From positions 1,800,001-1,864,000 of the forward strand of contig OZ249436.1 of the NCBI GenBank assembly GCA_965235115.1: a stretch of DNA of 64,000 nt, read 5' to 3'. How positions within the stretch are numbered: the first letter of the stretch is position 1; every line of letters begins with the position of its first letter. The notes below the pieces were generated by a model. It made no database searches. It was not told the origin of the DNA and was given only the letters and a program-made list of their open reading frames with translations. Below, one piece after another: positions 28,646 to 41,328 of this stretch. Origin of the DNA: Laetmonice hystrix (lineage: Eukaryota). The translations under genes and the position numbers were made by a program.

Positions 28646-29085
28646 TATGTTCGTACCCTCCAGCCCACCATCATGTTGATGCACTCAGGATCTAATGTTA
28701 CGACGGTTCAATGACAGTAACACTAGAAGCTATGCCGTAACCTCGACAACAGTTACAAAACCATCACGCGCTCACTGTACTGGTCATTTTATTAGATCCG
28801 CCCGGTACAGGTCAGTAAGAGCCGTGTGTTGCGGACGAAAACGTCTGCAGGACCAAAACGTCCGCGGACGTTTTGGTCCTGCGGACGTTTTGGTCTCAGC
28901 ATATGCGGCCAAAACGTCCGCGGGGACCAAAACGTCTGCGGACGCTTTGGGCCAGCGGACGTTTTTGTTTACCATAGGCGGACCAAAACGTCCGCGGGGA
29001 CCAAAACGTCCGCGGACGGTTTGGGGCTACCGTAGATGCACCAAAACGTCCACATGGCCCAAAACGTCCGCGGATCATCCTCTCC

Positions 29086-30916
29086 ACACTCTCTCCTGAC
29101 CATCAGTCTTCCTCCTACTCCCACTCTCTCCTGACCAGTCTTCCTCCTACCCCCACTCTCTCCTGACCAGTCTTCCTCCTACTCCCACTCTCTCCTGACC
29201 AGTCTTCCTCCTACCCCCACTCTCTCCTGACCAGTCTTCCTCCAACCCCCACTCTCTCCTGACCAGTCTTCCTCCTACCCCCACTCTCTCCTGACCAGTC
29301 TTCCTCCAACCCCCACTCTCTCCTGACCAGTCTTCCTCCAACCCCCACTCTCTCCTGACCAGTCTTCCTCCTACTCCCACTCTCTCCTGACCAGTCTTCC
29401 TCCTACTCCCACTCTCTCCTGACCATCAGTCTTCCTCCTACTCCCACTCTCTCCTGACCAGTCTTCCTCCTACCCCCACTCTCTCCTGACCAGTCTTCCT
29501 CCTACTCCCACTCTCTCCTGACCAGTCTTCCTCCTACTCCCACTCTCTCCTGACCAGTCTTCCTCCTACTCCCACTCCCTCCTGACAAGTCTTCCTCCTA
29601 CCCCCACTCTCTCCTGACCAGTCTTCCTCCAACCCCCACTCTTTCCTGACCAGTCTTTCTCCTACCTCACTCTCTCCTGACCAGTCTTCCTCCAACCACC
29701 ACTCTCTCCTGACCAGTCTTCCTCCTACCCCACTCTCTCCTGACAAGTCTTCCTCCAACCTCACTGACTCTCTCCTGACCAGTCTTCCTCCTACCCCACT
29801 CCCTCCTGACAAGTCTTCCTCCTACTCCCACTCTCTCCTGACCAGTCTTCCTCCAACTCCCACTCTCTCCTGACCAGTCTTCCTCCTACACCCACTCTCT
29901 CCTAACCAGTCTTCCTCCTACTCCCACTCTCTCCTAACCAGTCTTCCTCCTACCCCACTCTCTCCTGACCAGTCTTCCTCCTACACCCACTCTCTCCTAA
30001 CCAGTCTTCCTCCTACTCCCACTCTTTCCTGACCAGTCTTCCTCCTACCCCCACTCCCTCCTGACAAGTCTTCCTCCTACTCCCACTCTCTCCTGACCAG
30101 CCTTCCTCCTACCCCCACTCTCTCCTGACCAGCCTTCCTCCTACCCCCACTCCCTCCTGACCAGCCTTCCTCCTACCCCCACTCTCTCCTGACCAGTCTT
30201 CCTCCAACCCCCACTCTCTCCTGACCAGTCTTCCTCCAACCCCCACTCTCTCCTGACCAGTCTTCCTCCAACCCCCACTCTCTCCTGACCAGTCTTCCTC
30301 CTACCCCCACTCTCTCCTGACCAGTCTTCCTCCAACCCCCACTCTCTCCTGACCAGTCTTCCTCCTACTCCCACTCTCTCCTGACAAGTCTTCCTCCTAC
30401 TCCCACTCTCTCCTGACCAGTCTTCCTCCTACCCCACTCTCTCCTGACAAGTCTTCCTCCTACTCCCACTCTCTCCTGACCAGTCTTCCTCCTACCCCAC
30501 TCTCTCCTGACAAGTCTTCCTCCTACTCCCACTCTCTCCTGACAAGTCTTCCTCCTACCCCACTCTCTCCTGACCAGTCTTCCTCCAACCCCCACTCTCT
30601 CCTGACCAGTCTTCCTCCTACCCCCACTCTCTCCTGACAAGTCTTCCTCCTACCCCACTCTCTCCTGACCAGTCTTCCTCCTACTCCCACTCTCTCCTGA
30701 CCAGTCTTCCTCCTACCCCCACTCTCTCCTGACCAGTCTTCCTCCTACCCCACTCCCTCCTGACAAGTCTTCCTCCTACACCCACTCTCTCCTGACAAGT
30801 CTTCCTCCTACACCCACTCTCTCCTGACCAGTCTTCCTCCAACCCCCACTCTCTCCTGACAAGTCTTCCTCCTACTCCCACTCTCTCCTGACCAGTCTTC
30901 CTCCTACTCCCACTCT
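29086..30916 (+). repeat. Left-arm minisatellite of the foldback element, 30-31-bp unit, ~59 copies
   Basis: Unit cccactctctcctgaccagtcttcctcctact-like, pyrimidine-rich. Confidence 0.97.
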
Positions 30917-31561
30917 GGAAATAGTTATGTTACCATGTTAACTGCTGATATCAATTGTAGATCTAGGGGTGTTTTCTTTTGTTTTCTTTTAGATATGGGA
31001 CCGCGGTTGCTGAGCATTACACTGTTGCTAGACAACATGTCCAGGGTGCCCATAATATATAATCATTAAACCCGTTTCTAAAATGATAATTTTTACACAG
31101 TTATGTAAAGTTCAAAAATATTCGGTAAAAAGGTCCCAAAACTTTGACCTTGCAAGGTTTAAGTGCATGTCGCACAAAATTTCTCGCGATGACATATACC
31201 AAAACAAACTCCAAATGAGTCCTTAATTAATAGGGTTTTCATAGATGTCATTCGTTTCATGAAGTTCTAAGTAGTTTTCAGCACAGCGAAGTTTGTTTGC
31301 AAATTTAATAAGTCTGAAAGCTTCGAAAAACGGACGTTATAATACTAACTGTAATGCTAACATCTGAGCGAGAATAGGGAGTTTAGTAGCATGACTAAAA
31401 ATAACGTAATTTCAAACAAGGAAATAAGTGCTGGTGTAAGAAAATGTTGCCTAGCAACAGTGTAATGCTCAGCAACCGGTCCCATATCTAAAAAGACAAA
31501 AGAAAACACCCCTAGATCTACAATTGATATCAGCAGTTAACATGGTAACATAACTATTTCC

Positions 31562-33103
31562 AGAGTGGGTGTAGGAGGAAGACTGGTCAGGAGAGAGTGG
31601 GGTAGGAGGAAGACTGGTCAGGAGAGAGTGGGGTAGGAGGAAGACTGGTCAGGAGAGAGTGGGGTAGGAGGAAGACTGGTCAGGAGAGAGTGGGGGTAGG
31701 AGGAAGACTGGTCAGGAGAGAGTGGGGTAGGAGGAAGACTGGTCAGGAGAGAGTCAGTGAGGTTGGAGGAAGACTTGTCAGGAGAGAGTGGGGGTAGGAG
31801 GAAGACTGGTCAGGAGAGAGTGGGGGTAGGAAGAAGACTGGTCAGGAGAGAGTGGGAGTAGGAGGAAGACTGGTCAGGAGAGAGTGGGAGTAGGAGGAAG
31901 ACTGGTCAGGAGAGAGTGGGGGTAGGAGGAAGACTGGTCAGGAGAGAGTGGGAGTAGGAGGAAGACTGGTCAGGAGAGAGTGGGGGTAGGAGGAAGACTG
32001 GTCAGGAGAGAGTGGGAGTAGGAGGAAGACTGGTCAGGAGAGAGTGGGAGTAGGAGGAAGACTGGTCAGGAGAGAGTGGGGTAGGAGGAAGACTGGTCAG
32101 GAGAGAGTGGGGGTAGGAGGAAGACTGGTCAGGAGAGAGTGGGGTAGGAGGAAGACTGGTCAGGAGAGAGTCAGTGAGGTTGGAGGAAGACTTGTCAGGA
32201 GAGAGTGGGGGTAGGAGGAAGACTGGTCAGGAGAGAGTCAGTGAGGTTGGAGGAAGACTTGTCAGGAGAGAGTGGGGTAGGAGGAAGACTGGTCAGGACA
32301 GAGTGGGGATAGAAGGAAGACTGGTCAGGACAGAGTGGGGTAGGAGGAAGACTGGTCAGGACAGAGTGGGGTAGGAGGAAGACTGGTCAGGAGAGAGTGG
32401 GGGTAGGAGGAAGACTGGTCAGGAGAGAGTGGGGTAGGAGGAAGACTGGTCAGGAGAGAGTGGGGGTAGGAGGAAGACTGGTCAGGAGAGAGTGGGGTAG
32501 GAGGAAGACTGGTCAGGAGAGAGTGGGAGTAGGAGGAAGACTGGTCAAGAGAGAGTGGGGTAGGAGGAAGACTGGTCAGGAGAGAGTGGGGGTAGGAGGA
32601 AGACTGGTCAGGAGAGAGTGGGGTAGGAGGAAGACTGGTCAGGAGAGAGTGGGAGTAGGAGGAAGACTGGTCAGGAGAGAGTGGGAGTAGGAGGAAGACT
32701 GGTCAGGAGAGAGTGGGAGTAGGAGGAAGACTGGTCAGGAGAGAGTGGGAGTAGGAGGAAGACTGGTCAGGAGAGAGTGGGGGTAGGAAGAAGACTGGTC
32801 AGGAGAGAGTGGGAGTAGGAGGAAGACTGGTCAGGAGAGAGTGGGGGTAGGAGGGAGACTGGTCAGGAGAGAGTGGGAGTAGGAGGAAGACTGGTCAGGA
32901 GAGAGTGGGGGTAGGAGGGAGACTGGTCAGGAGAGAGTGGGAGTAGGAGGAAGACTGGTCAGGAGAGAGTGGGAGTAGGAGGAAGACTGGTCAGGAGAGA
33001 GTGGGGGTTGGAGGAAGACTGGTCAGGAGAGAGTGGGGGTAGGAGGAAGACTGGTCAGGAGAGAGTGGGAGTAGGAGGAAGACTGGTGGTCAGAAGAGAG
33101 TGT
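31562..33103 (-). repeat. Right-arm minisatellite of the foldback element, reverse complement, ~50 copies
   Basis: Unit gtaggaggaagactggtcaggagagagtggg. Confidence 0.97.
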
Positions 33104-33679
33104 GGAGAGGATGATCCGCGGACGTTTTGGGCCATGTGGACGTTTTGGTGCATCTACGGTAGCCCCAAACCGTCCGCGGACGTTTTGGTCTCCGCGGACG
33201 TTTTGGTCCGCCTATGGTAAACAAAAACGTCCGCTGGCCCAAAGCGTCCGCAGACGTTTTGGTCCCCGCGGACGTTTTGGCCGCATATGCTGAGACCAAA
33301 ACGTCCGCAGGACCAAAACGTCCGCGGACGTTTTGGGCCAGCGGACGTTTCCGTCCGCAACAGCCGTGCATACACAAGGATCAATAGATTATTTTTAACG
33401 GAGAGAGAACTGCGTATACAAGTCAAAATTACTACCCTTGTTATAAGAAGATTATTGATATGGGCACTTTATGCAAGCCCCTATGGATTCTTGTAATATA
33501 CATTTCAGCATTATTTCCATAAAGAATAACAATTGAGTTGTACTGAAGAGCTTTCTTGTATAAAATGTGTTTAATATTCGATATGATATGACTTGGTAAT
33601 TCCCTATACAATCCCATATGTTTCTAATTATATAAATCAAATAGAACTCGGTCTATCGTTAACATCATATTTCCTATAC

Positions 33680-38612: not shown

Positions 38613-41328
38613 GCAGAAAAAAGAGCAAATGCTTCGTAACAGGAGTGTTGCAACCCCCGTACCCCCCCCCCCCCCCCCATGGGTGACTTAAACAGCCAAT
38701 GATTGGCTGTTCAAATCAATGCCATGTCAACAACCAGCCATGAGACGATCGCTTCATGGCGACAACAGGCAGCTGGAATGTTCGCTTTCATTAGATTCCT
38801 CCATTTCTGTGTGTTTAAACATTTATTGATTTATGTAGTCTAAGGCTTTTGGAGTCATTGAAATACGAGATAGTCGGTGTTTGCCTTAAATGTATATACA
38901 TGTATATTATAAGTTGGCGCTCGATCGAGTGCAGCAGGCTGTGTATTAGTGTTTAATTATATAAGTTGGCGCTCGATGGAGTGCAGCAAGCTGTGTATTA
39001 GTGTTTAATATTATAAGTTGGCGCTCGATCGACTGCAGCAAGCTGTGTATTAGTGTTTAATATTATAAGTTGGCGCTCGATGGAGTGCAGCAAGCTGTGT
39101 ATTAGTGTTTAATATTATAAGTTGGCGCTCGATCGACTGCAGCAAGCTGTGTATTAGTGTTTAATATTATAAGTTGGCGCTCGATGGAGTGCAGCAAGCT
39201 GTGGATTAGTGTTTAATATTATAAGTTGGCGCTCGATCGAGTGCAGCAAGCTGTGTATTAGTGTTTAATATTACGTTTCATGTGTCACACCTCCACTAGA
39301 TCTGATGACGATTTGATTCATGAATTCAGTAGACGCCGTGTACAGTTTGGATGAAAGCCCGTAAGTCAGTCAGATAGGACAGGAGATTTATGAGACAGTT
39401 TCGTAAGTCAGTCAGATAGGACAGAAGATTTATGAGACAGTTTCTAGAAAAGATCAATGACATTAACGAGTACAGTCTGCCAGGTCGGTCAGAGCTTAGC
39501 AGTCTTTATATTTCGTTTACTGTGAAAAGTACTAATATAATATTACGACAGTGTAATGTCCTATTATGAATTGGTTGCTCTCTAGAAACCTGCCCCGCTG
39601 GCCACCGTTTATATCGGTCAGCTTGTTCAAATGAGAGCCCCAAACCATGAAGTACGAAAAGGTTTATTCATTCTCGTTTCTTGTCTCCGGCTATAATTGA
39701 GAAATAAAATAAGATTTTAAATGCAGCGATGTGTGTGCATCTAATAAAGAGGGATAAAAACTACATAGAAAGATACATGTCATTATAATGAAATGTGGAA
39801 AAGAAAAAAAAAGGAATCGCATGGGTCTAGAACATGATGCACATGTATTATGTACATGTAGTTATCTAGGGTCAATCATGTTTGCCTCTCAACACATATT
39901 CGCCCAGACAGATCATAGCTCATAGCTCTGTGTTCAAATGTTCAAATGCAGAAAAAAGAGCAAATGCTTCGTAACAGGAGTGTTGCAACCCCCGTACCCC
40001 CCCCCCCCCCCCATGGGTGACTTGAACAGCCAATGATTGGCTGTTCAAATCAATGCCATGTCAACAACCAGCCATGAGACGATCGCTTCATGGCGACAAC
40101 AGGCAGCTGGAATGTTCGCTTTCATTAGATTCCTCCATTTCTGTGTGTTTAAACATTTATTGATTTATGTAGTCTAAGGCTTTTGGAGTCATTGAAATAC
40201 GAGATAGTCGGTGTTTGCCTTAAATGTATATACATGTATATTATAAGTTGGCGCTCGATCGAGTGCAGCAGGCTGTGTATTAGTGTTTAATTATATAAGT
40301 TGGCGCTCGATGGAGTGCAGCAAGCTGTGTATTAGTGTTTAATATTATAAGTTGGCGCTCGATCGACTGCGGCAAGCTGTGTATTAGTGTTTAATATTAT
40401 AAGTTGGCGCTCGATGGAGTGCAGCAAGCTGTGTATTAGTGTTTAATATTATAAGTTGGCGCTCGATCGACTGCAGCAAGCTGTGTATTAGTGTTTAATA
40501 TTATAAGTTGGCGCTCGATGAAGTGCAGCAAGCTGTGGATTAGTGTTTAATATTATAAGTTGGCGCTCGATGGAGTGCAGCAAGCTGTGTATTAGTGTTT
40601 AATATTATAAGTTGGCGCTCGATCGAGTGCAGCAAGCTGTGTATTAGTGTTTAATATTACGATTCATGTGTCACACATCCACTAGATCTGATGACGATTT
40701 GATTCATGAATTCAGTAGACGCCGTGTACAGTTTGGATGAAAGCCCGTAAGTCAGTCAGATAGGACAGGAGATTTATGAGACAGTTTCGTAAGTCAGTCA
40801 GATAGGACAGAAGATTTATGAGACAGTTTCTAGAAAAGATCAATGACATTAACGAGTACAGTCTGCCAGGTCGGTCAGAGCTTAGCAGTCTTTATATTTC
40901 GTTTACTGTGAAAAGTACTAATATAATATTACGACAGTGTAATGTCCTATTATGAATTGGTTGCTCTCTAGAAACCTGCCCCGCTGGCCACCGTTTATAT
41001 CGGTCAGCTTGTTCAAATGAGAGCCCCAAACCATGAAGTACGAAAAGGTTTATTCCTTCTCGTTTCTTGTCTCCGGCTATAATTGAGAAATAAAATAAGA
41101 TTTTAAATGCAGCGATGTGTGTGCATCTAATAAAGAGGGATAAAAACTACATAGAAAGATACATGTCATTATAATGAAATGTGGAAAAGAAAAAAAAAGG
41201 AATCGCATGGGTCTAGAACATGATGCACATGTATTATGTACATGTAGTTATCTAGGGTCAATCATGTTTGCCTCTCAACACATATTCGCCCAGACAGATC
41301 ATAGCTCATAGCTCTGTGTTCAAATGTT
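38613..41328. repeat. Tandem segmental duplication (1,330 bp and 1,381 bp)
   Basis: Copies at 38613-39942 and 39948-41328 are near-identical; they carry 7 versus 8 copies of a 52-bp unit (tattataagttggcgctcgatggagtgcagcaagctgtgtattagtgtttaa) and C17 versus C16. Confidence 0.95.

Follow-up and report, generated by a model that had tools for sequence, protein, structure and literature searches.

A foldback transposon with a private minisatellite in Laetmonice hystrix, and a candidate integrase-type enzyme for its movement

The DNA analysed here, which we call the window, is a stretch of 64,000 nucleotides from Laetmonice hystrix (C1:1800001-1864000, where C1 is contig OZ249436.1 of the 627-Mb, 35-contig assembly GCA_965235115.1). 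At window positions 28827-33362 it holds a 4536-bp element with inverted ends, TGTTG...CAACA, and long repeat-filled arms. We consider it probable, at roughly 0.75, that this is a non-autonomous foldback cut-and-paste transposon, moved in trans by an integrase-type (DD34E) enzyme from a sublineage of Ginger2 that lacks the HHCC finger and bears an OTU domain. TGTTRC ends, a 6-bp duplication centred on G/C, and foldback arms point to the clade of an enzyme encoded in an element on contig C6. The exact partner is probably a relative of the C6 enzyme, rather than the C6 enzyme itself.

Structure and history of the element

The element lies between two perfect copies of GCCGTG (28821..28826 and 33363..33368), with CpG at positions 3-4. 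By chance, a perfect 6-bp duplication is expected with p ~2.5e-4 per copy. Both ends open with TGTTGCGGACG. Each arm has three parts. On the left, in forward orientation, an outer domain (28827..29086) begins at the TGTTG terminus and continues with ~2.7 units of 74 bp; a 32-bp minisatellite array of 57.2 units (29087..30916) and an inner domain (30917..31038) follow. A non-coding loop of 405 bp (31039..31443) then leads into the right arm, in reverse orientation: inner domain (31444..31561), an array of 47.8 units whose variants follow an order peculiar to it (31562..33087), and the outer domain (33088..33362), which ends CAACA. The outer 274 bases of the two arms are identical at 268 positions, ungapped, the inner domains share 116 identities over 122 columns, and the two arrays are inverted relative to each other. 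One AAAACGTCCGC-like motif, used in either orientation, makes up the 74-bp units; the left arm has 8 copies forward and 5 in reverse. This outer domain, common to short relatives elsewhere in the genome, is the putative transposase-binding region. Across the inner domains and loop, the longest stop-free frame is 59 amino acids.

Support for this structure comes from short-read contigs. Note that these derive from three runs, all of one sample that is possibly the source of the assembly, and that they show presence, not absence. The right junction is present in all three runs, while the left junction is a loose end in the contigs of one. At the right end, two runs show two alleles of one internal base, both attached to the same flank. 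An earlier note, made from the DNA alone, had described an intact element at 28821..33368 with TGT...ACA ends and an exact GCCGTG duplication, built of three-part arms around a non-coding loop. That description is borne out, and its inner-domain limits fall within 1-2 bases of ours. The same note called the insertion recent, which is supported only in part. The perfect duplication agrees with this; divergence of 4-5% between the outer domains of separate copies does not, nor do the two alleles joined to one flank at the right end. The proposed check for an empty site, with one GCCGTG in the other haplotype, revealed no such allele in the contigs of the three runs. Since contigs show presence only, this weakens the claim of recent insertion but does not refute it. 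We regard a fold-back chimera or misassembly as extremely improbable. Short-read contigs do not span the middle and the arrays, but both junctions are found in them, the arms are not identical (6/274 outer bases, the length of the arrays and the order of their variants all differ), and an independent copy on C13 has a different duplication.

This second copy (C13:14063475-14068080, 4606 bp) is flanked by an exact 6-bp duplication, CACGCC, and is thus the further genomic copy with a duplication of its own for which the earlier note had called. Its outer domain is 95-96% identical to that in the window. The arrays are shorter, with ~30 and 14 units (57/48 in the window), and one arm has no inner TGTTG. 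The middle, of ~2.45 kb, contains the window loop at 91% identity in reverse orientation. Hence, the arms are long, modular and inverted, with internal tandem repeats of variable number, the middle is variable and non-coding (405 bp versus ~2.45 kb), and the duplications at independent loci differ (GCCGTG and CACGCC). We conclude that the element behaves as foldback transposons do.

A 22-base stretch taken from the satellite matches the genome 86 times, 71 times in the window copy and 15 times in the C13 copy. Since all 86 matches lie within the two copies, the 32-bp satellite is private to the element, and the suggestion that it carries its own satellite was correct. The arms have a shared history. 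Within the first 262 bases there are 16 variable sites; six are common to both arms of one copy versus both arms of the other, and none of the 16 follows arm ancestry. Similarly, arms differ at 5 sites within a copy and at 10-13 between copies. Any two arms have 2-5 array unit variants in common. Sequence has therefore passed from one arm to the other within each copy after the divergence of the two lineages; the arrays have changed separately.

Other parts of the element resemble foreign DNA. The left inner domain is 72-76% like a subterminal repeat within the 880-bp ends of an unrelated and numerous TAG...CTA element, which we take to be Academ-like and which has a 3-bp duplication, AAT. For the loop, the likeness is 81% to the middle of a different repeated element. 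On these similarities, both the inner domain and the loop appear to be fragments taken over from other transposons. The TAG...CTA element itself (L052:197-5482, contig C2) is 5.3 kb long and non-coding, with the AAT duplication and the 880-bp ends, and has dozens of genomic copies or half-copies. Its ends hold ten GTTGCCTAGCAAC-type palindromes, which presumably resemble the RFX X-box.

The inner domain reads TGTTG outward from the loop, such that each arm is bounded by TGTTG and CAACA. Each arm could then be a small element in its own right, with two inverted copies carrying the loop, in the manner of bacterial composite transposons. We think this very unlikely. The inner TGTTG belongs to the GTTGCCTAGCAAC motif, with ten occurrences inside the ends of an unrelated element, and it is missing from one C13 arm. 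Furthermore, no single arm with its own duplication was found, and all satellite matches are in the two full copies. The idea, already largely refuted by the lack of a solo arm and by the GTTGCCTAGCAAC origin of the inner TGTTG, was dropped.

Searches with the outer domain detected short, older relatives, with 22 end matches (1 in the control). Eight sites have paired flanks: GCCGTG/GCCGTG, CACGCC/CACGCC, GACGTG/GACGTG, CACATC/CACGTC, AACGTC/AATGTC, GTCATT/GTTGTT, CACGTC/GATGTC, and AGCGCC/TGTACC. In seven of the eight, one flank or both have CG at positions 3-4 (p = 1e-7, for a local CG frequency of 3.8%). Moreover, CG or its decay products CA, TG and TA are found on both sides in all eight (p = 1.3e-5). 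Two decayed relatives have one TAT end each.

Several other loci were met in these searches. An identical end at C5:6599350 does not mark a coding copy, only a remnant of 60 bp next to EGF exons. On the same contig, L054:1006-4823 contains a two-exon EGF module in ~5 tandem copies with 92-98% identity, introns included. A 2.3-kb family sharing an 11-base end motif was rejected as unrelated, since its ends are different and the motif is subterminal. L043 (C1:28988080-28990520) and at least four other loci hold a family of 2.3 kb or more that has GGGGCATTCC ends and several copies of a GTTGCGGACGGGAC motif; it also occurs in tandem at C1:3.80 Mb and C19:4.20 Mb. Three short relatives (L031:4883-5474, L033 and L037) have telomere-like (TTAGGG)n/(CCCTAA)n tracts in the middle. 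More small inverted-repeat families, with the related motifs GAACGTCCA and AAAACGTCCC, are present at L058:405-1335; these families suggest a wider set of AACGTCC-motif elements. Finally, a frame resembling a His-Me finger endonuclease (L035:5499-6005; PF05551, E 2e-13) lies ~500 bp from a 57-bp family-motif array, and is possibly related to KolobokP.

The window is rich in minisatellites (93 tandem-repeat rows). Among 53 frames at 14-50 kb of the window nothing exceeded Pfam cut-offs, and an Rfam scan of 27-36 kb gave no matches. Elsewhere in the window, a block in which a 52-bp array accompanies a 42-bp doublet occurs twice, ~1.35 kb apart (38904-39444 and 40238-40830). With its two copies, the element is a relic, and no effect of it on any gene is known.

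A coding sister family and its enzyme clade

A sister family with TGTTACAACC ends (TGTTRC) has 233 end matches in the genome. Duplications were read from 16 pairs among the first 100 matches, 15 on C1 in list order and one on C6 chosen by length. Fourteen are exact 6-bp duplications, one has a single mismatch and one pair has none. With one nested copy added, 15 duplications are exact; in every one, both central bases are G or C, and CG is found once.

The C6 member (C6:15008847-15021431; L085 and L086) is a 12.6-kb foldback element with TGTTAC ends and the duplication GACGTG. In its arms, the 311/510-bp tandem arrays differ in length, at ~0.65 and 3.3 kb. Its ends recur in ~110 short copies. 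The element encodes an intact, stop-free frame of 903 amino acids with Pfam rve and OTU domains; Pfam gave no match to the zinc finger PF17921. By protein profile and predicted structure (mean predicted local distance difference test score 70.8), the protein comes closest to the integrases of foamy viruses and Ty3. Within the frame there are also a 72-bp repeat expansion and a stretch that, by eye, is F-box-like. The window and C6 elements agree in duplication length and in their six outermost bases, TGTTRC. The ends of a relative, L055, have two mismatches to those of the C6 element in the first 11 bases.

The C6 enzyme has 29 relatives at E < 1e-38 among 69 matches, most with rve and OTU domains; those named are from sea urchin, corals, oyster and crinoid. 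Clustered at 50% identity, the clade yields at least 150 groups, and E is < 1e-66 for all of the best 150 representatives. For 84 clade proteins covering the N-terminal part and the core, HHCC is found in none, D-34-E spacing in 70, and YPYY as one loose match. For the 64 that reach further towards the C-terminus, GPY/F is found in none and the OTU cysteine motif in 52. In a tree of 60 rows, a branch with 100/99 support separates the 20 clade rows from the rest. Note that 'Ginger2-like' rows in this tree were labelled by motif, and that its rows include neither Ginger1 nor named Polintons.

According to the supplement of PMC10045372, Repbase files six mollusc families as Ginger2 (Ginger2-1/-2/-3_CGi, Ginger2-1/-2_CySi and Ginger2-2_TeGr). 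Clade member P0084 differs from Ginger2-3_CGi at 17/113 core positions, and so is ~85% identical by eye count. The same core signature appears, again by eye, in five more Repbase Ginger2 cores. On these comparisons, the enzyme clade is likely already catalogued as Ginger2 in Repbase. Hence, on present evidence, there is no new superfamily. The published description of Ginger2 does not fit the clade. We found no paper on a Ginger2 lineage that makes 6-bp duplications, targets G/C, bears OTU or has foldback build, in a search of full-text literature that covered few subscription journals and no Repbase Reports; such features may be on record already in the entries for the six mollusc families. 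The earlier proposal of a possibly undescribed family is therefore half right. The element is undescribed as DNA, as far as searched, while the likely enzyme clade has a Ginger2 entry.

We can sketch how the element would move. The enzyme would bind the repeated motif of the outer domain, excise the element, and join the 3' CA ends to the target with a 6-base stagger centred on CpG. Host repair would then create the duplication. Its history may have started with a small terminal-repeat element that enclosed foreign DNA, consisting of a seed of 32 bp, part of the end of another transposon, and the middle of a third element. Copying between arms would have recruited the seed and the transposon-end piece into both arms, with the arrays afterwards growing and shrinking separately, and the window copy presumably lost most of its middle.

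Weighing the candidate enzymes

Our next concern is whether a coding partner shares the ends of the window element. Note that genome searches score the best candidates only. On this basis, no coding copy with window-element ends was found. Hence, where the earlier note looked for copies enclosing a DDE or integrase frame, we have instead a coding sister family with TGTTRC ends. Besides C6, six further loci have a related transposase: C3:3895586 (the best, at 44% identity), C5:33599691, C3:3385824, C12:29606890, C8:29678512 and C8:31735791. A genome search with Pfam rve was swamped by retrotransposons, with the best 150 of 1181 candidates scored. Among 111 frames around family loci, Pfam detected none with a transposase that would match; a weak and unrelated DDE_1 and a His-Me domain were all that it gave. 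The end pattern had no matches in viral contigs and one chance bacterial match in metagenomes. Similarly, the clade profile recovered only distant integrases from viral contigs (9 loci), and a protein feature search returned only generic integrase clusters.

The lack of a coding copy with matching ends weighs against assignment to the C6 clade, and other observations do likewise. The 22 end matches are far from the seven best transposase matches in the genome, and the clade profile matched only the C6 element among the loci examined and the window. For non-coding elements, a rule used by Repbase asks for equal duplication length and no more than one mismatch in the first 11 bases (PMC4455052); compared with the C6 element, the duplication length agrees and four of the first 11 bases differ. 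Target preference also differs, since a CG centre is found at 7/8 sites here versus 1/16 in the sister family (Fisher p = 1.8e-4). The count of eight leaves out eight unpaired or blurred ends, where CG or its decay products fit only five and fail at three. In the tree, the clade is joined to nine Ginger2-like rows at only 88/80 support. Published Ginger2 and TDD elements provide further discrepancies. Ginger2 is given a 4-bp or 4-5-bp duplication (5-bp for TDD), an AT-rich RTATAY target, an H2C2 finger, and terminal inverted repeats of 50-300 bp (PMC2836005, PMC10045372, PMC3845634). In contrast, the duplication is 6 bp here and in 14/16 sister pairs, the target centre is CpG or G/C, and the finger is found in 0/84 clade proteins; the arms here are kilobases long. 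PMC6839031 does once give Ginger2 a 6-bp duplication, citing a paper that states 4 bp. Because duplication length, target and zinc finger all fail, the element is not a textbook Ginger2 member; its putative membership rests on the sister family.

An IS3EU/GingerRoot transposase, for which 6-bp duplications are the published norm, is an outside chance. GingerRoot has 6-bp GC-rich duplications and, in 5/77 copies, TG...CA ends (PMC6839031); like the clade of the C6 enzyme, IS3EU/GingerRoot elements have no HHCC (PMC6839031, PMC10045372). The genome holds 15 rva_4 matches, including one intact frame of 433 amino acids that lies within a 35-kb element, and the local IS3EU-like family also makes 6-bp, GC-rich duplications, which is a further point against the Ginger2 assignment. 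For that family, five end pairs gave two exact duplications, one with a single mismatch, and two that do not match. The ends, however, are wrong. They read TATGCCGTGCC in 40/54 matches and TG in 1/54, and are 6/11 bases away from those of the window element; the local family thus has TATG ends, whereas both copies of the window element have TG...CA. In published accounts, IS3EU/GingerRoot ends are mostly TA...TA, the duplications have no sequence motif, and the core is rva_4 (PMC6839031, PMC10045372). Moreover, 0/15 rva_4 matches are near ends of the window-element type, with ends known for part of the rva_4 loci only. The rva_4 loci on C3 were rejected as a partner, being broken and within a longer duplicated block. 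We put at somewhat poorer odds another or unrecognised transposase group, such as hAT6 or a Polinton-derived integrase, that is extinct in this genome. In its favour, no partner with matching ends was found, and strict CpG centring occurs in neither coding family examined, an observation that again tells against the C6 clade. However, hAT ends begin YA, which counts against hAT. Families of hAT with 6-bp duplications do exist (PMC12730594). Polintons too have 6-bp duplications, as here, but their ends are AG...TC rather than TG...CA (PMC6839031). Against any extinct group, the C6 element combines TGTTRC ends, the 6-bp duplication and foldback arms. Hence, we favour a Ginger2-type enzyme of the C6 clade. 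The proposal that the element is non-autonomous and mobilised in trans is supported, with no long frame in the loop and an integrase-type (Ginger) enzyme as the best candidate.

The IS3EU-like family was also observed as elements of ~35 kb with TATGCCGTGCC ends (C4:36761258-36796547 and C5:37893201-37927792; L059, L063-L068). In these, an rva_4 transposase faces an AAA-ATPase-like frame that has no Pfam match, and nested insertions are many. Non-coding derivatives are 1.6-1.9 kb long with 6-bp duplications. Inside the C4 element, L064:3067-6371 contains frames of 666 and 473 amino acids, the second with an OTU-like motif, which are probably another nested transposon.

Relation to known transposons and significance

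Ginger ends follow TGTNR (PMC2836005), and TGTTG is found at 4/4 ends of the two copies. Ginger1 has TGTNR ends, GC-rich, CpG-centred targets (CCGG, CCGT/ACGG), a 4-bp duplication and, in several families, a C-terminal OTU domain (PMC2836005). The target here is CpG-centred too, and of the C-terminal domains that mark Ginger1, OTU or Ulp1, the OTU is present in the candidate enzyme and in 52/64 clade proteins. Yet the duplication is 6 bp, not 4-bp CCGG/CCGT, and the YPYY, H2C2 and GPY/F motifs of Ginger1 are absent from the candidate enzyme's clade; the cores published for Ginger1 also look unlike those of the clade.

As an architecture, the foldback build has precedents. Drosophila FB and sea-urchin TU elements share it, with arms lengthened by repeat expansion. 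The earlier note compared the element with these two, and the likeness holds for architecture but not for kinship; most foldbacks are placed in the Mutator superfamily, with 8-10-bp duplications (PMC4079207). Tetris has the same layout of flanking, tandem, inner and middle parts, and is a Mutator element with 8-10-bp duplications (PMC4079207). Like Galileo, the element appears to have recruited internal sequence and pieces of other transposons into its arms, although Galileo has 7-8-bp duplications and belongs to the P superfamily (PMC4168063). In full-text literature, we found no report of a foldback build for an integrase-type superfamily.

Duplication length and terminal bases are the main route by which non-coding transposons are classified. 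A TG...CA element with a 6-bp duplication would go unclassified, or be placed in IS3EU/GingerRoot; here, an enzyme of the kind filed as Ginger2 lies inside one. Foldback arms were known from Mutator and P elements; integrase-type transposons can now be added to these. In addition, we have a minisatellite that exists solely as cargo of transposon arms. We entertain, as a rather doubtful possibility, that the HHCC-less OTU clade is a separate group of integrase-type DNA transposons, widespread in marine invertebrates, with a 6-bp duplication, G/C-centred targets and a tendency to foldback build, of which the sub-branch in the window reads CpG, perhaps methylated. The excision step has been called unknown for Ginger1 and Polintons (PMC2836005). 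If the clade is separate, the C6 element would be a ready system for understanding how an inserting integrase also excises itself. The intact single-frame enzyme, together with ~100 short sister copies, offers a test of excision and of the 4- versus 6-base stagger. Hence, the main interest lies in the coding sister element and its footprint, rather than in the two-copy relic in the window.

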